A stretch of DNA of 64,000 bases from positions 11,296 through 75,295 of the IMG/VR virus record IMGVR_UViG_3300025941_000018, one strand, 5' to 3'. The translations under genes and the position numbers were made by a program. Each line of letters opens with the position of its first letter. The stretch's first letter is position 1. The notes beneath the pieces are model-generated. The model was not told the origin of the DNA and searched no databases. It saw nothing but the letters and a program-made list of their open reading frames with translations. Source of the stretch: a virus. Positions 405-59,859 of this stretch are shown here, piece by piece.

Positions 405-1324
405 AATTCGACGCCGCATTCGACAAGTGGCTTGCCGCCAACGACGCCGGGATGTCGGAGGGCTCGCGCTCTGCCTACACGTTCGCTGTCCGCAGGTTCG
501 CCGCGTTCTGCAAAGCGCATCGCCTGCAGGTCGAAGACGTTCACAAACGGCACATCGCGGCTTACATGGCTGAGGCGACTGACGAGATCAAGGGCTGGAC
601 CGTTATGGGCCAGGTGAAGCTTTTGAAACGGGTTTTCGAGTGGGCAGTGGCTGAAGGTCTGGCAGAGACAAACCCCGTCCAATTGAAGTCGCTGCCCAAG
701 CTAGTCCGCCATCGAGCCGATCGCACGGCCTTCACCGCCGATGATTACGCGGCCATCATGGAGCACGTCGGCGCGGCTAAGCCCTACTGGCGGCTTGCCT
801 GTGCGCTTGCCTGGCACACCGGGCTACGCATGGTGGACGTGGCAAATTTGCAGTGGGAGCATGTGGACTTTTCGGTGCGCGTGCTGAGCGTCAAGCCAAT
901 TAAACTTCAGCGCTTCGGACAGCAGCTCGAAATTCCAATGGCCGACGAACTGTATGAGGCGCTCATCCAACGGCACACTGAGAGCACGACCGAGGAACCG
1001 GGCGAGTACGTCCAGCCCGACATGATGATGGCCTACAAATACGGCCGCACTCGGTTAGTTGAGCAGTTCGAACAACTGCGGAAGCGCGCGGGTTTGAGCG
1101 GCGGCAGCTTTCACTCGTTCCGGCACGCAGTGGCCACGAGGCTAATAAATGCAGGCGCTGATTCCTTGGTTGTCGCCTCAATTACAGGGCATAGCCTGAA
1201 GCAACTGAAGGAATACACTCACGTTTCAATGGAAGCCAAAAGGAACGCCTTCAGCATAGCGCAAAAAGTATTGACCCCGCCTTTCAGAAATGAGAATCTT
1301 CGCACGGCCCTAGAACGGCTGTAA
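401..1324 (+). CDS. int: Tyrosine recombinase / integrase
   Basis: TGLR, central K, HSFRH, TGH and Y catalytic pattern; N-terminal core-binding region ending TNP. Confidence 0.93.
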   Translation: MKFDAAFDKWLAANDAGMSEGSRSAYTFAVRRFAAFCKAHRLQVEDVHKRHIAAYMAEATDEIKGWTVMGQVKLLKRVFEWAVAEGLAETNPVQLKSLPKLVRHRADRTAFTADDYAAIMEHVGAAKPYWRLACALAWHTGLRMVDVANLQWEHVDFSVRVLSVKPIKLQRFGQQLEIPMADELYEALIQRHTESTTEEPGEYVQPDMMMAYKYGRTRLVEQFEQLRKRAGLSGGSFHSFRHAVATRLINAGADSLVVASITGHSLKQLKEYTHVSMEAKRNAFSIAQKVLTPPFRNENLRTALERL

Positions 1325-1417
1325 AAACAGATGCGAATAAGATTCTCCATCTCCCTTCACGGTTGCCGCCAAGTCTGTGCGGGTTCTACTTCACGGTCGG
1401 GGGATGGCTTTTCTGTT
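1271..1417 (+). promoter_or_regulatory. Sigma70-like promoter plus structured leader of HNH gene
   Basis: TTGACC-17-GAATCT; hairpin GGCC-CTAGAAC-GGCT (1306-1320) whose loop is complementary to GTTCTA (1383-1388) inside a CCATCTCC/GGGGATGG stem. Confidence 0.55.
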
Positions 1418-2155
1418 ATGTCAAACGCAAAACACGCACGGAAGTACTATTGGAGCCATCGGGAGGAGGTCCTGAGGCGGGCTGTAGAGTATCGCAAGAA
1501 TAACTTGGAGAAATTTCGCCTCCGACATGCAGCAAACCACCTGAAGCACAAAGCTAAAAATAACGCCTATTCCGCGAGGTACTTAGCTGAGCATCGCGAA
1601 GCGATTAACGCCCGTAAACGCAGGTATTACGCGTCGAACAAAGAGAGAATATTACGAGCGAGAGCAGAGGAGAGGATTAATAACTTGGATGCTTTTCGCG
1701 CACACGGCAGGGCGAAATACTGGAAAAACCCGGAAAAAGGCAGGATAGCGTGTGCCGCCTACGCCAAGAAGTATCCAGAAAAATGTGTCGCTAGGGTTGC
1801 AAAACGTCGGGCTCGCATGGCCGCCGTAAGAACGTCAGAGGACGCGGCAACACTAATCTTTCGCTTAAAAAATCAGGCAAAAAAGATCCGATGCCACTGG
1901 TGTGGACGCCGATTAACTTCCTCCACTCTGGAAATCGACCATATCATTCCAATTTCCAAAGGCGGGGCTCACGAGGCTGACAACTTGTGCGCAAGTTGCA
2001 AATCGTGCAACACTAGCAAGGGAGACAGGGCTTTGAAGGACTGGCACAAAAAAGGCCAGCAAATACTCCCATTAGAGCCCTCTGGTTCAACCGCCATGGG
2101 CAACACAATTTCGCCAGTTCCAGTTGGAAACGCACAAGGCAACCAATGTTTCTAA
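1418..2155 (+). CDS. HNH endonuclease with long basic helical N-terminus
   Basis: CHWC...EIDHIIPISKGG...NLCASCKSCNTSKG. Confidence 0.9.
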   Translation: MSNAKHARKYYWSHREEVLRRAVEYRKNNLEKFRLRHAANHLKHKAKNNAYSARYLAEHREAINARKRRYYASNKERILRARAEERINNLDAFRAHGRAKYWKNPEKGRIACAAYAKKYPEKCVARVAKRRARMAAVRTSEDAATLIFRLKNQAKKIRCHWCGRRLTSSTLEIDHIIPISKGGAHEADNLCASCKSCNTSKGDRALKDWHKKGQQILPLEPSGSTAMGNTISPVPVGNAQGNQCF

Positions 2156-2213
2156 TTTCACGGGCTGCTTTGTCGCTGCTCGCCGGTTGGCGGGCGCTGG
2201 CGATTCCGAATTT

Positions 2214-2522
2214 ATGAGTTTGAAATATCACGGCAGATTTGGCGACGGATTGCTCTATACGCTTGGGGAGACTCGAATAATTCTATCCGGCCCAAAGGAA
2301 CGTGAAGCGATTGGCTGGCATTTCAGCATTTCATGCCCCGACAGGAACCCAACTTGGGAGGAACAGAAAAAAGCCAGATACGAACTTTGCCCGGACGACC
2401 TCTACATGGTCCAGATCATGCCGCCCAAGAAAGAGTACGTGGCCGTTCACGAATTCACATTTCATTGGCATGAGGCTGGACCTAAGTTTTTCGACGTTAA
2501 AACCGGAAGGCCATTAGGGTGA
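2214..2522 (+). CDS. Conserved phage hypothetical protein
   Basis: WHFSIS...PTWEE...PPKKEYV..H...H pattern typical of small phage proteins. Confidence 0.7.
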   Translation: MSLKYHGRFGDGLLYTLGETRIILSGPKEREAIGWHFSISCPDRNPTWEEQKKARYELCPDDLYMVQIMPPKKEYVAVHEFTFHWHEAGPKFFDVKTGRPLG

Positions 2523-2550
2523 AACCACCACACCACCCAGAAGCAGGATT

Positions 2551-3423
2551 ATGAAAATGCTTCTTGACCTTTCGGCACTCCCTTGGCAGCATCGTCTCGC
2601 TTTGCAGGACTCCGAGACATCTAAGGATTTGTCGCCCTCTCCGGGGGAATCTTCGCTTGTCGAGGCGTCCGCAAAGCACCCGGAGGGCGGCGATATTAAG
2701 CGTCAAATCCATTTGCGGAAGAAAGCGGCGCGGATGCGGGCCTGGAGGTTGAGAAACCCTGAAGTAATGAAGGCAAGAAACCGCAAGTGGTACGCTGAAA
2801 ATAAGGAGTGCATTTCAAACAAGGCGCGACTGAGATATGCGGCAAACCCATCTGTTAAAATATCGAACAACAGGGACTACTATCGACGCAATCGAGAAAA
2901 AGTTAACGCTTACAACAAAAGGCTTGTCGAAAGAATCAAGCGAGAGCAGCCCGAGCGCTACGCCGCGTGGCTGCGCAAGACATACGAAAACGCCAAGCCA
3001 GGCTTAGTGGAGTATAGACGCCGTCCAGAAATTAAGGCACGCCACCGCGTTGAGAGCAGGCGGTGGGAAGCGGCAAATCCAGAAAAGCGGAGAGCAATGA
3101 ATCGCTCTTGGGTTGAAAGAAACAAAGAAAAAGTAGCCGCAGATCGCAAAGCTCGAAAGGCGCTACCAGAGGACAGGCCAGGGGTTGATGAATTTCTTCG
3201 AAAAGTTTTTAGCAGGCGATTTATAAAATGCTACTATTGCCAACGAAGGACCAGCACGAAGGCGGTTCACGTTGACCATATTGTGCCGAGAAGCAAGGGA
3301 GGAAAAACAAAAGCCGATAACCTTTGTGCCGCCTGTCCAGACTGTAACCTTTCCAAGCACGCAGCGCTAATTCCAGATTGGCAGAAACGCCGCGACCACT
3401 CGCAGCAAATCTTGCACTTATGA
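2551..3423 (+). CDS. HNH endonuclease (true start probably near 2734)
   Basis: CYYC...HVDHIVPRSKGG...NLCAACPDCNLSK; similar to 1418..2155. Confidence 0.9.
   Translation: MKMLLDLSALPWQHRLALQDSETSKDLSPSPGESSLVEASAKHPEGGDIKRQIHLRKKAARMRAWRLRNPEVMKARNRKWYAENKECISNKARLRYAANPSVKISNNRDYYRRNREKVNAYNKRLVERIKREQPERYAAWLRKTYENAKPGLVEYRRRPEIKARHRVESRRWEAANPEKRRAMNRSWVERNKEKVAADRKARKALPEDRPGVDEFLRKVFSRRFIKCYYCQRRTSTKAVHVDHIVPRSKGGKTKADNLCAACPDCNLSKHAALIPDWQKRRDHSQQILHL
2564..2693 (+). promoter_or_regulatory. Promoter plus structured leader of HNH gene
   Basis: TTGACC-17-CAGCAT; hairpin GTCTCG..CGAGAC (2594-2618) carrying GCTTTGCAGGAC, complementary to GTCCGCAAAGC (2667-2677) within a long stem 2632-2693. 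Confidence 0.6.
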
Positions 3424-7206: not shown

Positions 7207-8042
7207 GCATGTGCATCAAATGCGGTATCGCCTTCATTAATCGACCTGAGTGTCCCGCGCCAGAGAATCAGCTTTGCCTTTGGTGTGAGCGCGATGGGTT
7301 GAAGGAATTGAACGCGACCTTGTGTGCCGCCATCAAGCGTTTGGAAATCACGCACGTTGAGCTAATGAAAACGAACGGGATTCTTATGCAATTCGTGCCT
7401 TGCGGAGATTGTGATCCGTGTCTGGTTGGCAAACCGGCACAGTGCGCAATGATTCCGCTAGATGAGTTTGTAAAGCAAAAGGAAAAGCAAGTGTCCGATC
7501 TTCAACAGCAACTCGAATCCGCATTCAAAGGCGTACTGTCCATCCGCTGCACCAAGCACTACACCGTGCCACAACAGAACAAAAACGAGCACGGCGGCGG
7601 ACAGTGCGGCGGGTGCATCGCGGGCGAGCGGGACAAGTTCGCTCGTATCGCAGACCGAGAAATCCAATTGCGGGTGCAACTGGCCAATATGCTTTTCGAG
7701 TGCCAAGAGGCTCTGAAAGTCGCCATCAACACCGTTGAGTGCGCGAGTATCGACACAAGGACAGGCGAGGAATTGCCGTGGTATAAAATGGCCAAGAAAG
7801 CATTGCTCCCAAGAAAGCTCACCGAGGCCGAGGAGAAACTGTGCGCCGATTCCTTTCACAAGTCCAAAATTGCCCAATTAGAGCGCCATGTGAGAAACTT
7901 GGAAATCGCCTTGGCTGAGTCGGTAAAATTACAGAGCTTCTATGGGCAACTGCTTAACACCTACGATGGCGGGAGCAGGCTCAAATTTGATGACTCCCAA
8001 GGCTGGATTATGCGACTGCAACAAACTGGAACCCTGCCATGA
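7203..8042 (+). CDS. Hypothetical Cys-rich coiled-coil protein
   Basis: Several CxxC pairs; coupled ORF. Confidence 0.65.
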   Translation: MSMCIKCGIAFINRPECPAPENQLCLWCERDGLKELNATLCAAIKRLEITHVELMKTNGILMQFVPCGDCDPCLVGKPAQCAMIPLDEFVKQKEKQVSDLQQQLESAFKGVLSIRCTKHYTVPQQNKNEHGGGQCGGCIAGERDKFARIADREIQLRVQLANMLFECQEALKVAINTVECASIDTRTGEELPWYKMAKKALLPRKLTEAEEKLCADSFHKSKIAQLERHVRNLEIALAESVKLQSFYGQLLNTYDGGSRLKFDDSQGWIMRLQQTGTLP

Positions 8043-31872: not shown

Positions 31873-32688
31873 TTACGCGATCTGGGGAGGGTTGGCAAGG
31901 GGGATTGTGGCGCCTTTTGACAGATTATCAAATTCCCAAAGGGGCTGGATATTAGAGAAATGAAAGCAAATTTTCTGCTGCTCTGGGTCCGTCAGATCAA
32001 AAGAACTACATGGTCGCTTATGATCCAGATGGATTTTCCCGCTCATTATTCCCTCCATGCTCATGCCCTCGGTAAATTGCGATTCAAGGTGGGCGATGAG
32101 TTCTGGAATGGTACAGCCAATCAGTTCCATGGTTTTCTTTGCTTTCTTGGCCCGACCTCGGAGCGCGTGCCAGAGACGCGAACGAAGTCGGTTGCCGATA
32201 TTGTACTGCGGATCGGTTTGCCTTTTGTGGCGTTGCCAGAGCTTGATGTATTCACGGTCGCGATCAGCGGTGATGTGCTTCCGTGCTTTTATCCGATCGT
32301 ACTGCTTCTGTTTGTTGCGCATGAAATAGTCCATGCCTCGCTTTTTGCACTCGGCGTTGTAGAAAAGGTCTCCGTAGTACTTGTCGTTGCGCTGCTTTAT
32401 TCTCCTCTCCCTAATTTTCGGCTGCATGTTTTCAGCCCTCATCTTGGCGAGCACGTCTGGGTCGCTCATCCTGCGGTGGATGTACTGAATGTTCCAAAAT
32501 TTCTCCCGATTGAGCAGGAGTATCCAGACGTATAACCGGGAGTTTTTATTACATAGAATTGCGGGCCAAAGCGGCGACACGTCTATAAAATCCACGGCGT
32601 CTGCGCGTTTGTTTTTCCTCCATGCTCGAACGATGGGCGACCAATCAACGGGTTCCGAATTTGGCTTTCTTAATGGGTGCGACATAAG
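31873..32688 (-). CDS. HNH-type endonuclease inserted after capsid gene
   Basis: LRSRL...LIGCT...HLESQF..GM...HLDHKRPC..FDL....CFHFSNIQPLW..DN..KG. Confidence 0.88.
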   Translation of the reverse strand, partial: LMSHPLRKPNSEPVDWSPIVRAWRKNKRADAVDFIDVSPLWPAILCNKNSRLYVWILLLNREKFWNIQYIHRRMSDPDVLAKMRAENMQPKIRERRIKQRNDKYYGDLFYNAECKKRGMDYFMRNKQKQYDRIKARKHITADRDREYIKLWQRHKRQTDPQYNIGNRLRSRLWHALRGRAKKAKKTMELIGCTIPELIAHLESQFTEGMSMEGIMSGKIHLDHKRPCSSFDLTDPEQQKICFHFSNIQPLWEFDNLSKGATIPLANPPQIA

Positions 32689-32830
32689 TTTTTGAAGCGC
32701 CCCGTGATGCGTGTCGCACCTTGCAGCAGGGAGCCGCAAGCACGTAACACGGAGCGAAGTTGTTCGGTGACGAATTCATTCGGGTGCGAACCGAGGGAAA
32801 AATAATGGCCGCCATCTCGAACAAACGCAA
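32689..32830 (-). promoter_or_regulatory. Promoter plus structured leader of HNH gene
   Basis: TTGCGT-17-CATTAT; hairpin CGG-TTCGCAC-CCG with loop complementary to GGTGCGA inside GCTCCGTG..CACGGGGC stem. Confidence 0.55.
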
Positions 32831-32831
32831 C

Positions 32832-32860
32832 AAAAAACCCTCGCCAATTACGGCGAGGGT
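32832..32860 (-). terminator. Intrinsic terminator after major capsid gene
   Basis: CCCTCGCC-gtaatt-GGCGAGGG-TTTTTT. Confidence 0.85.
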
Positions 32861-32880: not shown

Positions 32881-34833
32881 TTAGACCAAAGAACTCAGCG
32901 CAGTGAATGCAACCGAGAGTCCGATTAGTAGCCAGCCTAATCCGGCGTAAAGGTTACTATAAGATGGGTTCAAACTGCGCCCTGAAGTTGAAGGCACCAC
33001 GTCTGCGATCCCCAGAATCGCCAGCGAATTTGCGGGGCATTCCACAATGGCCGTTTTTGTGACGCTAGTAAGCGTGATCTCCTGCGTCACATTCTCCATC
33101 GTGCAAGCAAATGTCGGGTCGAGCCTTGCGAGGTTTTCGAGTTCGCCGAGCGTGCGATTCTTCCGGTTGCTGTCGATCATGCCGGGATAGATCGTGCCGC
33201 CTTTAGGTCCAGGCTGGCCGATGTCGAGCACCAGCATCATACGACCTTGCGAACTGATATTCTCCGTCGAGAACGCGTTGAACCAGTCGTCGAAGTATTC
33301 GTGCGTGATGATGTTGATCGTCACACCCTGCGGGAACTTCGGCTGGAAGCTGGTCCAGTGGAAGCCGAGTTCGTTCTTGCCGGTCTCGATGTTGAGCCGA
33401 ACGATGTCGCCGTATTCGAGCTTCATGTAGTTCACAAAAGCGGTTTCGAACAGCGCGGCCATGCGCGAGTCCGTGTAAACGTCGATGGAGTCCGAGTTGC
33501 GGCCCTGGCTCTTGCGAGCACGCATGATGTTGTAAATCTCGTCGAAGAACTCGTAGAGATTGAGCGCGTTGTTTTGCAGGTCGCGAACACGGTCGCAGGC
33601 TCGTAACTGCTCGATGACGCCGATTTGATACGCCTCGTAGGCGACCAGCTTGCCGCCGGTGCCGGGGTCGATCTGCGAGCCGGTAACGGTCAGGATCTGG
33701 CGCAGGGATTGCCAGAGCGCCATCGTCTGGTTCGAGGACACAGCCTTACCCCAGAAGAACGCATTGACCTGCTCATTCTGGAACTGCATTTCATCCTGGC
33801 GATTGCGTTCGGCCATCGGGAGGTCCCCGAGTTGACGCCAGGCTTCGTTGGACTCCATCAGGCGGGCGAACACTTTCTTATATTCCGAATCCACGCAGCG
33901 GGAGCGGCGGACGGTTTCGATCCAGAACGGAATGCGTTTGCGAGGGTCGAGCGTTGGCCGGTTATGGCACCAGCTTTCGAAGTCGTTCGCAAATGCGCCG
34001 GTCTTGATCAGCACGCCCGAAGTAGGCGCGGTGTCGAAGGGAGTCGCGCTGCCAGAGTTTTGGCTGGTGATCAGCACGTCAACGTAGGACGAGTCAGCGG
34101 CGGCCGCCGATGCCAATACTTTCCACTGGCCTTGAGTGCCGACACCACTGCCGGCGCGGCCAAAGATTTGCACGCGATCGCGGTCAACGAACCAGTTGGC
34201 ATCGAGGTCAACTCCGTAGCGGCTGACAACTCGGACGACGCGGTCGCCAGCGGCGCCCAATGCCTTCTGTGCGGTCGTTAGCGGCCCGGTAACCAAGGCG
34301 GTGTACGCGGAATTCGCCTGACCTTGAGTGATGGCCCAGAAATCGACGTTGATGACGCTGTCCTGCCGAGCGAGCACGAATGGCTGCAACAGCGAAGGCC
34401 CGCGGTCGAGCTTGGTCGTGTTGATGAGCGACTTCATGTTGCGCGCACTGGACATGATCCAGTCATACACGCCATTGGTCTTCACGCCGCACGCCTGCAT
34501 TTCAAACGCGGTTCTCCACCAGGCATCCATATCGGCGTATAAGCCACCGGGACGGAATAGGGTGTCGAGGTCAGCGGGCGTCAGGTGGGCGACCGTAGCG
34601 CGAGTCACGGTGCCGCAGGTATCGTAGTTGTTTCCAACCACGACTTGGCACGGGGTACTCTTGAAGCGCGTGGCGAGTGCGGTAACAGCCATCGTGACGC
34701 CTTTGACGGGCGTCAGCAGCTTGGCGAGGAATAAGCCGGCAACTCCCCAAGCGGGATTGTCGAGCGTGAAAGCGGCTGCGGCGAGAACCAGCAGCGCGCT
34801 GAGGATAAGTAGCGGTCGTAATGTTCGTTTCAT
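32881..34833 (-). CDS. Major capsid protein (putative), with hydrophobic N- and C-terminal segments
   Basis: Follows portal and scaffold, followed by strong terminator; spine-helix-like E...NAFFWG then GVIEQL pattern. Confidence 0.72.
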   Translation of the reverse strand: MKRTLRPLLILSALLVLAAAAFTLDNPAWGVAGLFLAKLLTPVKGVTMAVTALATRFKSTPCQVVVGNNYDTCGTVTRATVAHLTPADLDTLFRPGGLYADMDAWWRTAFEMQACGVKTNGVYDWIMSSARNMKSLINTTKLDRGPSLLQPFVLARQDSVINVDFWAITQGQANSAYTALVTGPLTTAQKALGAAGDRVVRVVSRYGVDLDANWFVDRDRVQIFGRAGSGVGTQGQWKVLASAAAADSSYVDVLITSQNSGSATPFDTAPTSGVLIKTGAFANDFESWCHNRPTLDPRKRIPFWIETVRRSRCVDSEYKKVFARLMESNEAWRQLGDLPMAERNRQDEMQFQNEQVNAFFWGKAVSSNQTMALWQSLRQILTVTGSQIDPGTGGKLVAYEAYQIGVIEQLRACDRVRDLQNNALNLYEFFDEIYNIMRARKSQGRNSDSIDVYTDSRMAALFETAFVNYMKLEYGDIVRLNIETGKNELGFHWTSFQPKFPQGVTINIITHEYFDDWFNAFSTENISSQGRMMLVLDIGQPGPKGGTIYPGMIDSNRKNRTLGELENLARLDPTFACTMENVTQEITLTSVTKTAIVECPANSLAILGIADVVPSTSGRSLNPSYSNLYAGLGWLLIGLSVAFTALSSLV

Positions 34834-34882
34834 CTTGTTGCGTTTTGCCGGCGCGACATGCGCTCGACTTACGCAACAAGAA

Positions 34883-55899: not shown

Positions 55900-56292
55900 A
55901 TGATACCGGTTCGCTACTGGTTACCGATGCTCTGGGCTGCTGCCGTGGCCACCCTGGTTTTGCTCTGCCGACTGCGGTTTCGCACTCTGGCGGGTAAGAT
56001 CCTCGACTTCCTGTCGCTGCTGATTTCCTACGACTGGGTGTCCAATTTGCGGCACTTCCGCATGTCGCATTGCCGCCGGTGCGAACTGTTCGACGCCAAG
56101 CGACAAACCTGCGGACGGGCATCGCTGACAAAAGAAAGCTGGTATGAATCCCCAAGGACTGGGCGCTCCGAGCCCTACGGGTGCTGGTGCTATCTCCCGG
56201 TCAAAGCCGCGACTCCCTGCAACTGCTGGCTCTACGAACGCACCAATGGCGAATCTGGCTGGCCGGCGGCGCTCAACAGCTTTCCGTTATGA
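55900..56292 (+). CDS. Cys-rich hypothetical protein
   Basis: R...CRRC...C...GCWC.L..KA....C. Confidence 0.55.
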   Translation: MIPVRYWLPMLWAAAVATLVLLCRLRFRTLAGKILDFLSLLISYDWVSNLRHFRMSHCRRCELFDAKRQTCGRASLTKESWYESPRTGRSEPYGCWCYLPVKAATPCNCWLYERTNGESGWPAALNSFPL

Positions 56293-56723
56293 GCGAATGT
56301 TGGGGTGTCACACTGCGGTTGCCGGGCGAGTCCGACCAGGATTACAAGGCTCGGCTGCAATCCAAAGCGGCAAACGCGCGCGAGGCCCTGGCCCGCAAGC
56401 ACAGGGACCTGAAAGAAAACCCGCGGCCTGACATGATCATGATGCTGGAAATCGCCGCGACCGCTGTTTTTCGCAATATCGAACGGCTCAGGGCTAAGCC
56501 ATCGTACCAGACCAAGCACAGCGTCGAGTTACGCGCGCTCACCCGGGAGCTGACGACCATCACCGCCAAGATCGTCGATTACAAGGAGTCCCAGAAGCCC
56601 AAGAAGTATAAGCCTCGCAAGGGCAAAGGCGAAGTGGTCGAGGAAGAGGCCCCGATTCAAAAGGCGTTCTCGCCTGGCCGCGTGATTCAGCCGGGGAATG
56701 GGTCTGGCGCTCCGGCGGAATAG
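56289..56723 (+). CDS. Hypothetical basic helical protein
   Basis: ATGA-coupled. Confidence 0.55.
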   Translation: MSECWGVTLRLPGESDQDYKARLQSKAANAREALARKHRDLKENPRPDMIMMLEIAATAVFRNIERLRAKPSYQTKHSVELRALTRELTTITAKIVDYKESQKPKKYKPRKGKGEVVEEEAPIQKAFSPGRVIQPGNGSGAPAE

Positions 56724-56975
56724 CCCATGTCCATTTTTGCCTCCTCATCGGAGACAGAAAAAATGGAAACGCTCAGCGCCGTCCGCCTTTCACACGATTC
56801 AAATTTGGATTCCTCTTCCGGGCCGCGCTGCTGGCCCGCCTGGTTGACGCGGCCAACTCCGCGCTCGCACGTTTCGTCGAAATGCCCTGGCGCCGCGCCA
56901 TGCTGCTTGCCACGCTCTTAAAGCTCATGCCCGCATCATCCTCGGAAAAAAAGTTGCGTCAACACCAGATTTTTG

Positions 56976-57158
56976 TTGCGTATGGCGAAATACGGACGCA
57001 GAATCGGCGGCGTCACTTGTGACACGGCGTCGAACCGCCAACAAAAATGAACGTTCTAAATTCAAATCCGCACCCACCGATGGGCCTTTTGGTACGCGCG
57101 CCCGCGCTTCCTTTTTTGGCCGTTCGCATCGGCTGGGTGCGGTTTCGAGTTTAGAACC
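56976..57158 (+). promoter_or_regulatory. Promoter plus structured leader of replication operon
   Basis: TTGCGT-17-CAGAAT; hairpin GGCG-TCGAAC-CGCC (57026-57039); long stem 57053-57157 ending just before ATG with bulged GTTCG. Confidence 0.65.
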
Positions 57159-57539
57159 ATGACCTACTCCGATAAACTGCGCGACCCGCGCTGGCAAAAA
57201 AAACGCCTGGAAATTCTCCAGCAGCGCAATTGGACCTGTGAGGATTGCGGAGACACAAAGTCCACGCTGCACGTGCACCACTGTTATTACGCACGTGCCT
57301 TCGAACCATGGGAATATTCAGATAATGCGCTGAAGTGCCTTTGCTGGAGCTGCCACGAACAAAGGGAGGACTTGGAAGCTGACATCAGAATGGAGTTGTC
57401 CAAATTCAGCAAGTCCTCCCTTGTTGATATTCTAACTTGCGTGCTTCAGGTGGCGAAGAAAATTGGAACGCCTGAACTTTGTAACACACTCTGTGAATTA
57501 GAGGCTTCGCAGGTGGAGCGTGCGGAGACAAAGCCGTGA
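57159..57539 (+). CDS. HNH-like protein
   Basis: DPRWQKKR..I......CEDCG...LHVHH..Y...LCWSCH. Confidence 0.85.
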   Translation: MTYSDKLRDPRWQKKRLEILQQRNWTCEDCGDTKSTLHVHHCYYARAFEPWEYSDNALKCLCWSCHEQREDLEADIRMELSKFSKSSLVDILTCVLQVAKKIGTPELCNTLCELEASQVERAETKP

Positions 57540-58492
57540 AACTATATCGCATCCGCGACTGGTCTGACCACTTCGAAAACAACCGCTCGAAGACCGTGGT
57601 AAGCCTCTCCTGGGTCGCCATCCCGAATCGGCATGACGGCGAAAACTATTCTTCCATCGTCACTCACGAGGACGGCGCCAAGATATTCAGCGCCTGGATT
57701 TTGATGCTCCAAGTCGCCAGCAAGTGCGACCCTCGCGGAACGCTCATTCGGGACAACAAGACCCCCCACACCCCCCTCTCCCTCTCCCTTAAAACCCGCG
57801 CTCCACAGGAATGGTTCGAAATTGCCCTCGACTTTCTCGTATCCAACACGGATTGGCTTGAATACGAGGAACTTGCAGGAGACTGTCAGCCGACTGTCAG
57901 GCAACTGACGCCCGAGTGCGCCTCGCGCGCGCGCGCGGAATGGAATGGAAAGGAGGGAATGGAAAGAAAGGAAGTGGAGTCTTGCGCTGTCGCGCCTCCT
58001 CCTGAAAAAACTACTAAAGAAGCGAAAAACTCAGAACACCAGAAGTTTATTGATTTCTGGTGTCGGGCGTTTCAAGACAGGTTCGGGCTCCCTTACGCTT
58101 TCGCTGGTGGAAAAGACGGAATGGCGGTGAAATCTCTGCTTTCCATGAAAATCCACCCGAATCAGTTAATTGAAATCGCGAGACGTGCTTGGGCCAAGAC
58201 GGATGGGCGGCTCTATTGGGCTTGTTGCAACCAAAGTCAAACCCTGGCTGGGTTTAACGGTGCGCTGAACAAAATCAACGCGGAACTGGCTAAAGACGGC
58301 GGTGGTGGACCCTCCATCTCCACTGATTCACTTCCCGACATCTACGAAATCGACGGCCACAAGTGGGCGATGAACGGTCCTGGACCCCAACGGAGCGACT
58401 TTGGCCCCGGGGAAGAGGGCGACGGCAACTTCTCGGGGTTCACTAAAGCGTTCGCGCATCGAAAGGAGAAATGGCTAAACGCGCGGAAATAG
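57536..58492 (+). CDS. Replication initiator (replisome organiser)
   Basis: Directly upstream of DnaB; internal repeats and low-complexity linker. Confidence 0.7.
   Translation: MKLYRIRDWSDHFENNRSKTVVSLSWVAIPNRHDGENYSSIVTHEDGAKIFSAWILMLQVASKCDPRGTLIRDNKTPHTPLSLSLKTRAPQEWFEIALDFLVSNTDWLEYEELAGDCQPTVRQLTPECASRARAEWNGKEGMERKEVESCAVAPPPEKTTKEAKNSEHQKFIDFWCRAFQDRFGLPYAFAGGKDGMAVKSLLSMKIHPNQLIEIARRAWAKTDGRLYWACCNQSQTLAGFNGALNKINAELAKDGGGGPSISTDSLPDIYEIDGHKWAMNGPGPQRSDFGPGEEGDGNFSGFTKAFAHRKEKWLNARK
57881..57975 (+). repeat. Candidate iteron/ori inside initiator gene
   Basis: GACTGTCAG x2 plus variant, (CG)n run, then purine-rich GGAAT/GGAAA repeats. Confidence 0.45.
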
Positions 58493-59859
58493 ACCGGTTA
58501 CCGCCATGGGACGATGCCGCTGAGCGCGCCGTCCTGGGGTGTGTCTTTTTGTCCCCAATCGACTCAATGACCGAGTGCCTGCTGAAACTACGCGCCGGCG
58601 CGGAGATGTTCTACGACCTGCGCCATCAGGAAATCTACAGCACGTTCCTTTACCTTCACGGCCACTCGAAGCCGATAGACCTGATTCTCGTGCATGACTA
58701 CCTGAAAACCAAGGATTTACTCGACCATGTCGGAGGGGTGGCCTACCTGTCACAGCTTCCAGACGCCTGCGCGAGCGCGCTGAACCTTCCGGAGTATATC
58801 GACATCGTCCAGCGCAAGCACCTACTGCGAACGATCATCCGGACCTGCACGGACACCGCGGCGGCCGCCTACGAGGTAAACGGGGAAGCCCGGGAGTTTC
58901 TCGACAGGTTCGAAGCCAAGTCGCTGTCCATCCGCGGTGCCACCGAGCCGCTGAGTGGGTTCATCGACCTCCTGGCCATTCGCGGCAGTTTACTTCAGGA
59001 CTACGATAACGCCCAGACGAAGCAGCGCCCGATGGGGATGCCAACCGGGTTCGATGACCTGGACCGCATATCCGGTGGGATGATGGATCAGGAAATGATT
59101 GTCCTGGCCGGATTGCGCTCGACCGGAAAGACATCGCTGGCGACCTCTATCGCGTTCAACGTCGCCCGTTCTGGCACCGGAGTTGGATTCATTTCCCTCG
59201 AGACTTCCGGCAAGAAAATCGTTCATCGCATGGCCTGCGCCGCCGGGCACGTCGATGGCAGCAAGCTCTTGGCTGGTTCGGTGAGCGCCGCTGAGAGCCA
59301 GGCGACCATGGCTGGGTTTAGTAGATTGATTTCGTGCGCGGATAAGTTACTGATTTCCGATGCTGGGCCCCTGAGCCCCGAGCAACTTTGCTCCGTCTGC
59401 CGGCGCATGTATCAGAAGGGTGCCCGCCTATTCATCGTCGATTATCTTCAACTTCTCAACTGCCCCGGGCAGAAGGAGTATGATCGGGCGACCTACGCCT
59501 CGCGCGCTATCAAAAACCTCGGCAAAGAAATGAACTGCCCAGTCATCGTGCTGTCGTCGCTGAATCGTGAGAGCGACAAGGACCAGCGGCGCCCGCGACT
59601 CTCTGACCTGCGCGCCTCGGGCCAAATCGAGTACGACGCCGACAAGGTCTGGCTGCTGTCGAACGATTCGAAGCAGCAGCAGGACGAACTCGCCCGCCGG
59701 GTGATACTCGATGTTGTGAAGAACAAAGACGGCCCGACCAAGGACTGCCGATTGATGTTCTTCGCCTCGGAGTTTCGAATGCAAAACGCAGCCAGGATTG
59801 ATGACCGAGACGTTCAGGCCGAATTTATTGACGCTCCAAATACCCCATACCCCGATTGA
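58471..59859 (+). CDS. dnaB: Replicative DNA helicase
   Basis: AERAVLG, PTGF.DLD...GG, GLRSTGKT, SLE, IVDYLQL, SLNR, RP.LSDLR.SG.IEYDAD, KNKDGPT. Confidence 0.96.
   Translation: MAKRAEIDRLPPWDDAAERAVLGCVFLSPIDSMTECLLKLRAGAEMFYDLRHQEIYSTFLYLHGHSKPIDLILVHDYLKTKDLLDHVGGVAYLSQLPDACASALNLPEYIDIVQRKHLLRTIIRTCTDTAAAAYEVNGEAREFLDRFEAKSLSIRGATEPLSGFIDLLAIRGSLLQDYDNAQTKQRPMGMPTGFDDLDRISGGMMDQEMIVLAGLRSTGKTSLATSIAFNVARSGTGVGFISLETSGKKIVHRMACAAGHVDGSKLLAGSVSAAESQATMAGFSRLISCADKLLISDAGPLSPEQLCSVCRRMYQKGARLFIVDYLQLLNCPGQKEYDRATYASRAIKNLGKEMNCPVIVLSSLNRESDKDQRRPRLSDLRASGQIEYDADKVWLLSNDSKQQQDELARRVILDVVKNKDGPTKDCRLMFFASEFRMQNAARIDDRDVQAEFIDAPNTPYPD

Follow-up and report, generated by a model that had tools for sequence, protein, structure and literature searches.

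A folded leader before a small phage HNH gene fits an uncatalogued family of leaders heading phage nuclease and replication genes

The expression of homing endonucleases in the phage T4 family is limited by hairpins that sequester the ribosome-binding site and by weak 5' terminators (PMC2988022). Such cases in T-even phages include I-TevI, -II and -III, segB, mobE of Aeh1, mobE/segF of T4 and seg43(25) of phage 25 (reviewed in PMC2988022). Here, we analysed a 64-kilobase (kb) stretch, hereafter the window, of the 75-kb IMG/VR virus record IMGVR_UViG_3300025941_000018. A sequence-only reading had proposed that four HNH nuclease genes of the window (sites 1 to 4) share a leader RNA, consisting of a promoter, a short hairpin (H1) and a long hairpin (H2) ending near the start codon, with the H1 loop complementary to an unpaired stretch of H2. 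The T-even hairpins are comparable in that a stable hairpin lies upstream of, or over, the ribosome-binding site of a nuclease gene, whether free-standing or encoded in an intron, with cassette promoters nearby and weak terminators lowering the amount of transcript; similarly, the site-4 hairpin adjoins the ATG and the 3' arm of the site-1 hairpin holds the only Shine-Dalgarno-like run. They differ in being single hairpins, for which neither the docking of a second hairpin nor a covarying loop code has been described, whereas the leaders considered here combine a promoter, H1 and H2 with a pseudoknot contact, occur in several phyla and also head replication genes. In the T4-type system, moreover, a late or middle promoter inside the hairpin gives rise to transcripts that are unable to form it.

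Another precedent is the guanidine-IV (mepA) riboswitch, in which a kissing contact of an upstream hairpin with a terminator hairpin has been proposed to decide termination (PMC7736828, PMC11611296). This riboswitch likewise has two leader hairpins, the second of which is a Rho-independent terminator, with U residues and then the start codon behind it. Its loops are conserved, however, and their contact is ligand-dependent, whereas the loops described here vary freely and form 5-8 Watson-Crick pairs, so that no ligand pocket is evident in these leaders. Leader RNAs that control phage early operons through RNA-RNA pairing are also known, namely the CI RNA of P4 (seqA/B/C), the c4 RNA of P1 and P7 and the CA RNA of N15. 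These are processed and then act in trans, by premature termination or by a translational block at distant sites. They resemble the present leaders in that a leader segment is complementary to a segment of the same transcript, before replication or antirepressor genes, and in that the specificity varies between relatives, but they show no sequence or Rfam (C4) similarity to them.

The leader of site 4 was found to fit a real, uncatalogued family of folded leaders located before phage nuclease and replication genes. One more leader of the window is a plausible member, and the other two are indistinguishable from chance. What is new is the spread of the leader of small HNH genes across phyla, together with a statistically supported variant with a 3'-side bulge in phages rich in guanine and cytosine (G+C-rich). 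The elements of site 4 are the following.

57159..57539, plus strand: small HNH-type gene of site 4, 126 amino acids (aa), matching PHROG 119 and 144 (HNH endonuclease, E 4e-14)
57053..57157, plus strand: long hairpin (H2) of site 4, 105 nucleotides (nt), folding free energy (dG) -55.4 kcal/mol
57026..57039, plus strand: short hairpin (H1) of site 4, GGCG-TCGAAC-CGCC, present in the minimum-energy fold
57122..57126, plus strand: target GTTCG, located in the 3'-side bulge that immediately follows the inner hairpin and complementary to the loop sequence CGAAC of H1
56976..57004, plus strand: weak promoter-like site TTGCGT-17-CAGAAT upstream of site 4, recognised in the sequence and missed by the promoter scanner

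The long hairpin of site 4 is the sole exceptional one among the four sites. Its stability corresponds to a z-score of -4.80, none of 200 shuffled sequences was as stable, and it falls within the top 0.09% of 3,446 window positions. The hairpin ends 1 nt before the ATG at 57159 and, as read from the folds, covers positions -2 to -106 relative to it, as is expected of a T4-type repression hairpin. Its outer stem (GTTCTAAATTC..TCCGCACCCACCGATG / CATCGGCTGGGTGCGG..GAGTTTAGAAC) surrounds an inner hairpin GGCC...GGCC, and a broken run of U residues, GGTTTCGAGTTT, lies within its 3' arm. The target is unpaired in the minimum-energy fold. The 3' bulge, GTTCGC, aligns with the bulges of the nearest relatives (L003, L002, L061 and L072), each of which pairs with its own H1 loop, and a stem of 4 base pairs (bp) with a loop of 6-7 nt is also found in the relative L048, whose GGCG-CTCGCAC-CGCT resembles the H1 of site 4. 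With regard to the promoter, H1 starts 21 nt after the -10 element of TTGCGT-17-CAGAAT, and the site called by the promoter scanner itself, GTGACA-18-AAAAAT (57019-57048), overlaps H1. Site 4 is the only one of the four window sites with comparative backing. Its hairpin is likely to be a member of the leader class, while for the specific loop-bulge pair proposed there the chances of its being real appear evenly divided.

The comparative evidence comes from 195 loci with homologues of gene 57159 in viral, genome and metagenome collections, none of which exceeds 66% protein identity and which provided 151 non-identical leaders. In the first 68 leaders, from viral loci, the 120 nt above the start codon showed a mean z-score of -2.45, compared with -0.58 in control windows (p 3e-6). 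The dominant hairpin has a median length of 88 nt and a median dG of -29 kcal/mol, ends a median of 7 nt before the ATG and is often followed by a run of U residues; a Shine-Dalgarno sequence, if any, is located downstream of this run. The recurrent unit is a short hairpin followed by a long, terminator-like hairpin adjoining the start codon. The sense strand was better folded than the antisense strand in 81% of the leaders, by a mean of 5.1 kcal/mol, compared with 62% of coding controls, which suggests that the structure works as RNA rather than DNA.

The contact between the two hairpins is also supported statistically. In 44 of 141 leaders, the H1 loop matched unpaired parts of H2 over 6 nt or more; the controls gave 11 with the parallel complement, 17 with the reverse, 13 with the same sense and 11.5 with shuffled segments. 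Matches of at least 7 nt occurred in 17 leaders, compared with 1-4 in the controls. When one leader per similarity cluster was retained, matches of at least 6 nt remained in 36 of 120, where 10.9 were expected (p 7e-11). A test of matched against mismatched partners that imposed no topology was dropped because it is confounded by ordinary long hairpins. Near-identical leaders change both partners together, as in GGACTAG/CTAGTCC, GTACGAG/CTCGTAC and GGTCGAG/CTCGACC (alignment A1), and the changes between them concentrate in the two pairing loops and the inner stems, the outer stems being fixed. A pseudoknot-type leader class, with covarying loop-loop or loop-bulge pairing between the promoter and HNH genes of phages, thus exists among the relatives, as the sequence-only reading had anticipated.

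Further members were contributed by a scan with a DNA pattern that was blind to the encoded protein. When 14 A+T-rich leaders are aligned, every cell of the 7-bp kissing helix is paired (100%), with six of its seven pairs changed on both sides, and the structure as a whole is 92% paired, compared with 63% in shuffles and 36-41% when the partners are slid. A TAnnTTTG element lies 3-5 nt before the short hairpin in these leaders; TAnnTTTG is the -7 promoter motif of Bacteroidota. The linker AACTTATT between both hairpins (columns 36-44 of alignment A4, e.g. L071:1303-1404) is nearly invariant in the A+T-rich leaders and unpaired in the model, and may be touched by a protein or the ribosome or take part in an alternative fold. 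The 14 leaders, of Bacteroidota type, were used to build a covariance model, R1.

In the 64 G+C-rich leaders, enrichment is specific to the 3'-side bulges of the long hairpin, just after the inner hairpin. With an H1 stem of at least 4 bp and a loop of 5-9 nt, 3'-bulge matches of at least 5 nt were found in 14 of the 64 leaders, where 5.3 were expected (p 7e-4), and matches of at least 6 nt in seven, where 1.2 were expected (p 2e-4). Approximately 60% of the 5-nt bulge matches in these relatives therefore exceed chance (14 vs 5.3). No excess of matches was observed for the apical loops of the same 64 leaders. Covariation on one backbone is illustrated by CGTTCC/GGAACG in L006 and TGAGCC/GGCTCA in L035, the former having a scanner-confirmed promoter, TTGAAT-16-TATTAT, 8 nt before the short hairpin. 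Further covarying 3'-bulge pairs are GTGAGAA/TTCTCAC in L072 and L061, TGGAAG/CTTCCA in L003 and GGTGAG/CTCACC in L002, and L048 carries TCGCAC/GTGCGA. This 3'-bulge geometry is the one that had been described for sites 2-4 of the window.

Compared with the A+T-rich type, the phage studied here is roughly mid-range in G+C content, by estimate rather than calculation, and has sigma-70-like rather than TAnnTTTG promoter-like sites. Whereas the A+T-rich type uses the apical loop as target, the window sites mostly use the 3' bulge, and R1 does not recognise the window. R1 likewise gave no match on the loci of the site-3 and site-2 genes, including L101, which indicates that the model is specific to one sequence subgroup. 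If the window sites are members, they would represent a different sequence lineage of the same architecture.

The leader had been suggested to travel with nucleases. It does precede at least three HNH families in the relatives, namely the small 57159-type, an HNH_3/NUMOD4 gene (L271) and a gene of site-3 type (L101). Members found with the DNA pattern, however, also head HTH_36 proteins, a Lin1244_N protein and a DUF1376-like protein, and since replication-type genes are thus headed as well, the leader is not nuclease-specific. It occurs in phages of Bacteroidota, Pseudomonadota, Desulfobacterota, Chloroflexota and candidate phyla, and several copies per genome are possible. The code GTACGAG/CTCGTAC was found again on three unrelated backbones (L050, L231/L359 and L101). 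Two side observations concern the codes. The 10.6-kb viral contig L271 contains two leader copies, 2327-2428 and 7432-7534, with the codes GTAGGAT/ATCCTAC and GTGAGAT/ATCTCAC, one heading a DUF1376-like gene and the other the HNH_3/NUMOD4 nuclease. ATGCGAC/GTCGCAT is used in both orientations, with the strands swapped between the hairpins (L017/L078/L238 vs L148/L008).

The leader is absent from Rfam. At gathering scores, the families of Rfam 15, including guanidine-IV, C4 antisense RNA, HEARO/omega RNA and group I introns, gave no match in the whole window, and Rfam gave none in 20 related loci. With E up to 10, positions 56700-57250 gave just one spurious match, to a long non-coding RNA (E 0.065). 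A scan of the window for transfer RNA and transfer-messenger RNA found none, and a search of a literature library found no description of a kissing-loop leader of HNH genes.

Of the remaining window sites, site 3 comes closest to the G+C-rich relatives of site 4. Its elements are as follows.

31873..32685, minus strand: HNH-like (endonuclease VII-type) gene of site 3, PHROG 1035
32698..32756, minus strand: long hairpin of site 3, with outer stem CGCTCCGTG/CACGGGGCG, inner hairpin CTTGCGGC..GCTGCAAG and then the 3' bulge GTGCGA (32719-32714)
32780..32794, minus strand: short hairpin of site 3, TCGG-TTCGCAC-CCGA, recognised in the sequence

The long hairpin ends 12 nt before the ATG at 32685. 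The region has a z-score of -2.43, with four of 200 shuffles as stable, and a dG of -32.1 kcal/mol, which is ordinary for the window. The fold that leaves the target unpaired reaches -38.6 kcal/mol, compared with a minimum of -39.8. H1 begins 8 nt past CATTAT (32807-32802), with TTGCGT (32830-32825) located 17 nt farther upstream, and this spacing between the -10 element and H1 is the same as in the relative L006. The target immediately follows the inner hairpin on its 3' side, the arrangement also seen in G+C-rich relatives of site 4; the loop is 7 nt long and the match 6-7 nt. The case for and against membership of site 3 in the leader class seems to us equally strong.

The elements of sites 1 and 2, together with the neighbouring integrase gene, are the following.

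401-1324: tyrosine integrase, with its stop codon at 1322-1324
1304..1322, plus strand: short hairpin of site 1, ACGGCC-CTAGAAC-GGCTGT, present in the minimum-energy fold
1347..1407, plus strand: long hairpin of site 1, with outer stem CCATCTCCC/GGGGGATGG and an apical loop with GTTCTA (1383-1388)
1418..2155, plus strand: HNH gene of site 1 (Pfam HNH, E 6e-13)
2594..2618, plus strand: short hairpin of site 2, GTCTCG-13 nt-CGAGAC, recognised in the sequence
2630..2695, plus strand: long hairpin of site 2, with GTCCGCAAAGC (2667-2677) 3' of a small inner hairpin
2551..3423, plus strand: HNH gene of site 2 (Pfam HNH), with an uncertain start

Site 1 is of the kissing type with a U-rich tail. The long hairpin is followed by CTTTTCTGTT and then by ATG 1418, which lies 10 nt from the hairpin end; its 3' arm contains the Shine-Dalgarno-like run GGGGGA and, as read from the folds, would hide it in the manner of a T4-type repression hairpin. 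The sense strand exceeds the antisense strand in stability by 5.3 kcal/mol, and the stretch 1331-1417 is not coding-like. The dG of the long hairpin, approximately -25 kcal/mol, equals the window median (region z-score -0.70). The short hairpin lies inside the last codons of the integrase gene, overlaps its stop codon (1322-1324) and begins only 4 nt past the proposed -10 element GAATCT (1294-1299). A search of a set of 5.8 billion proteins for homologues of the site-1 gene returned only the protein itself. Membership of site 1 in the leader class is possible but doubtful.

At site 2, the complementarity of 7+4 nt is real, but forms an ordinary nested helix in the minimum-energy fold (z-score -1.52), and the long hairpin ends 38 nt from ATG 2734. 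Positions 2551-2733 form an open frame in which AGGA precedes ATG 2557 and whose coding score equals that of the rest of the HNH gene, so that the supposed leader is probably coding sequence. The gene start is placed at 2551/2557 by the frame and the Shine-Dalgarno sequence, and at 2734 by alignment with its paralogue. Homologues of the gene were limited to five weak loci. Site 2 is unlikely to be a member. Taken over the four sites, the claim of a common leader stands as likely for site 4, plausible for site 3, possible for site 1 and improbable for site 2.

All loop and target motifs listed for the four sites are indeed present in the sequence, but the supposition that such matches are special within the window for the most part did not survive comparison with controls. 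The loop matched downstream sequence over 5 nt or more in 81-99% of shuffled leaders and over 6 nt or more in 27-73%. When both strands of the window were searched with a permissive descriptor, which asked for a short hairpin, an enclosing stem of 7 bp or longer and a match of 6 nt or longer, 636 candidates emerged, among which sites 1-3 ranked 383, 74 and 209 by summed energy. In a stricter pipeline, which counted only targets left unpaired in the long hairpin of minimum energy and was applied to 3,446 pseudo-starts in the window, matches of at least 5, 6 and 7 nt were found at 31%, 7.1% and 1.3% of these, respectively. Sites 1 and 3 scored 6 nt and site 4 scored 5 nt; the pair of site 2 was missed, as part of its target is base-paired in the fold of minimum energy. 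Two of four HNH leaders thus reach 6 nt against a background rate of 7%. The complementarities of 5, 6, 6 and 7+4 nt over the four sites are singly no rarer than the window background, and sites 1-3 could not be separated from this background by any of the window-only statistics (shuffles, descriptor ranking and pseudo-start background). The proposed topology, with a short and a long hairpin and the target unpaired, is nevertheless the minimum-energy fold, or within approximately 1 kcal/mol of it, at sites 1, 3 and 4. The promoters proposed for the four sites, with -35 and -10 elements 17 nt apart, fared less well: they agree with the consensus at only 7-8 of 12 positions, and none was reported by the promoter scanner at 9 or more of 12.

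On balance, we lean slightly towards the interpretation that a structured leader class heads self-promoted phage cassettes, very probably including site 4, plausibly site 3 and possibly site 1, for which a throttle in cis can be inferred. The leader RNA would lie between the promoter and the first gene of such cassettes, which would comprise HNH nucleases and replication-initiation genes, in several phyla. It would consist of the short 5' hairpin H1 and the long, terminator-like H2, ending at or just before the start codon, and the H1 loop would pair with an unpaired part of H2: the apical loop of the inner hairpin in A+T-rich phages of Bacteroidota type, and the bulge 3' of the inner hairpin in G+C-rich phages. 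Acting in cis on its own transcript, the leader would most likely serve as a throttle, with H2 terminating part of transcription, burying the ribosome-landing region, or both. The contact between H1 and H2 may lock or tune the fold, either stabilising it or straining the base of the terminator. As an outcome, a potentially harmful nuclease or early operon would be held at a low, set level of expression.

A number of observations weigh against this interpretation. The putative throttle derives from the anatomy of the leaders and from the T4 and guanidine-IV precedents. Covariation is seen solely in the leaders of relatives, no close relatives of the window's own leaders having been found, and R1 gave no match in the window even when cmsearch was run with filters off and E up to 10. 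At site 4, no more than 5 bp make up the loop-bulge pairing, and the bulge is fitted equally well, over 5 nt, by another upstream hairpin, CGTAT-GGCGAA-ATACG (56979-56994), which makes the true partner of the bulge ambiguous. Sites 1 and 2 are no more stable than their shuffles, and they have no usable homologues for comparison. The leaders of site-3 gene homologues show no enrichment (8 of 33 with a match vs 16% expected, p 0.16). The promoter-like sites are weak and, at sites 1 and 2, badly placed for transcription of the whole of H1: the hairpin begins just 1-4 nt past the proposed -10 element, so that the predicted transcription start lies inside it. Finally, a run of U residues after H2 is lacking at sites 2 and 3.

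Some of these points would also follow if nothing were shared between the four sites, that is, if unrelated hairpins happened to precede some of the genes, strong at site 4 and moderate at site 3, with coincidental matches that were picked by eye. Shuffles and the window background often contain matches of 5-6 nt, sites 1 and 2 have ordinary z-scores, the promoters fall under the scanner threshold and site 2 is coding-like. In addition, a comparison of the four window leaders found no sequence in common, and R1 matches nothing there. Coincidence throughout is nonetheless rather unlikely in our view, since the architecture, its 3'-bulge variant included, is statistically and covariationally real in the leaders of site-4 gene homologues, the bulge of site 4 lines up with bulges that pair in its closest relatives, and site 3 repeats the geometry, with H1 8 nt past the -10 element and the target immediately on the 3' side of the inner hairpin. 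A quite different explanation, and the more speculative option of the sequence-only reading, has the HNH protein bind the leader as a cofactor or guide RNA; it takes up the association with HNH genes and a weak similarity of the HNH domain to IscB (18 bits, far under the family cut-off of 175). We regard it as very improbable, given that the leader also heads non-nuclease genes, that its variable segments pair mutually and not with an external target, that the protein, of 126 aa, is no more than an HNH domain, and that neither HEARO/omega RNA nor any other Rfam family was matched.

The variability of the pairing segments also admits readings in which the code carries information. The unit from promoter to terminator could be a small RNA gene whose variable loop code acts in trans on the leaders of co-infecting or superinfecting phages, forcing termination. 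This would agree with the concentration of variation in the pairing loops and inner stems over fixed outer stems, with the occurrence of several copies with different codes in one genome, e.g. L271, with the discrete RNA of approximately 100 nt that H2 and its run of U residues would release, and with the position of site 4 at the head of a replication operon, like the P4 immunity leader. Yet the partners lie approximately 50 nt apart on one transcript, so that pairing in cis should win, and the recurrence of GTACGAG in L050, L231, L359 and L101 argues against private addresses; we therefore consider this explanation improbable. Scarcely better are the prospects that the loop/bulge code is an address by which each leader recognises itself alone, or that it underlies trans-acting RNA immunity or incompatibility between co-infecting phages. 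As an address, it would let transcripts from the cassette promoter, with H1 intact, pass the terminator, whereas read-through from upstream genes, with H1 unfolded by ribosomes or by alternative pairing, would be stopped, a scheme to which we likewise give little credence. At site 1, H1 overlaps the integrase stop codon, and ribosomes would unfold it there.

If the throttle in cis applies, its significance would lie in the harm that selfish nuclease genes and early replication operons do to a phage unless their expression is kept at a suitably low level. T4 achieves this with single hairpins and weak terminators; here, it would be done by a two-hairpin leader with a freely evolving, always matched code. 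If the contact controls termination or translation, the leader would be a compact natural part that can be given a new specificity by changing approximately seven bases, with possible uses in phage annotation, the insulation of mobile cassettes and the design of synthetic RNA control. Should the address or trans-acting alternative be true, it would be a portable, programmable RNA insulator common to phages across phyla. The window adds to the class a phage of mid-range G+C content, with sigma-70-like promoter sites and a 3'-bulge target, a form that A+T-rich sequence models miss.

With regard to the surroundings of site 4, gene 57159 opens a rightward replication module and is followed by a 318-aa open reading frame and then by a DnaB-type helicase gene (58471-59859). 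The possibility that the site-4 hairpin is the terminator of the open reading frame 56181-56723 was ruled out, as the hairpin lies 330 nt downstream and adjoins the next start codon. Contigs from four soil/root metagenomes match parts of 56700-57700, leaving out 56972-57141. A 22.9-kb contig of the rhizosphere run X4 matches 57159-57214, the first 56 nt of the gene, with 7 differences and has unrelated sequence above the ATG, which indicates that gene 57159 occurs with other leaders too. Exact-pattern scans of viral contigs for the outer stems of sites 4 and 3 gave 23 and 16 matches, respectively, all of them unrelated G+C-rich sequences. The 11-mer TTTTGTTGCGT has two exact copies in the window, at 32825-32835 (minus strand) and 56971-56981 (plus strand), upstream of sites 3 and 4; with one mismatch allowed, it has 6 matches, where 1.8 are expected. 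An extra GTTGCGT (56954-56959, plus strand) sits 22 nt before the site-4 copy. The 11-mer could be the -35/UP element of a phage promoter, or an operator.

The site-3 gene lies inside a long leftward structural block, past the terminator (stem 32860-32837) of an upstream 650-aa gene (32881-34833). Its homologues in viral contigs are distant and match the C-terminal half only. The public gene call for the site-3 protein (P0001, 198 aa) starts at the internal Met73, and an identical protein is also on record from a separate 43.6-kb contig. The homologue P0002 aligns from residue 25 of the long-form protein, which supports the long form with the ATG at 32685 and makes the gene approximately 72 codons longer than the public call. 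A 10-bp inverted repeat, CTTGTTGCGT...ACGCAACAAG, at 34833-34881 (minus strand) ends directly at the ATG of the 650-aa gene, suggesting that this gene has its own start-occluding hairpin; the repeat has a TTGTTGCGT core in common with TTTTGTTGCGT.

As had been proposed, all four genes behind the leaders are of HNH type. The genes of sites 1 and 2 match Pfam HNH and those of sites 3 and 4 match PHROG endonuclease families only, so that three different families are represented. The site-1 and site-2 genes are paralogues with 32% identity, and between them, right after the integrase gene, lies a gene for a DUF7694 protein (2124-2522, plus strand). In a codon/periodicity model trained on long genes of this phage, all four HNH genes score between -0.02 and +0.02 per nt, compared with +0.03 for the other genes, which fits recently acquired mobile cassettes.

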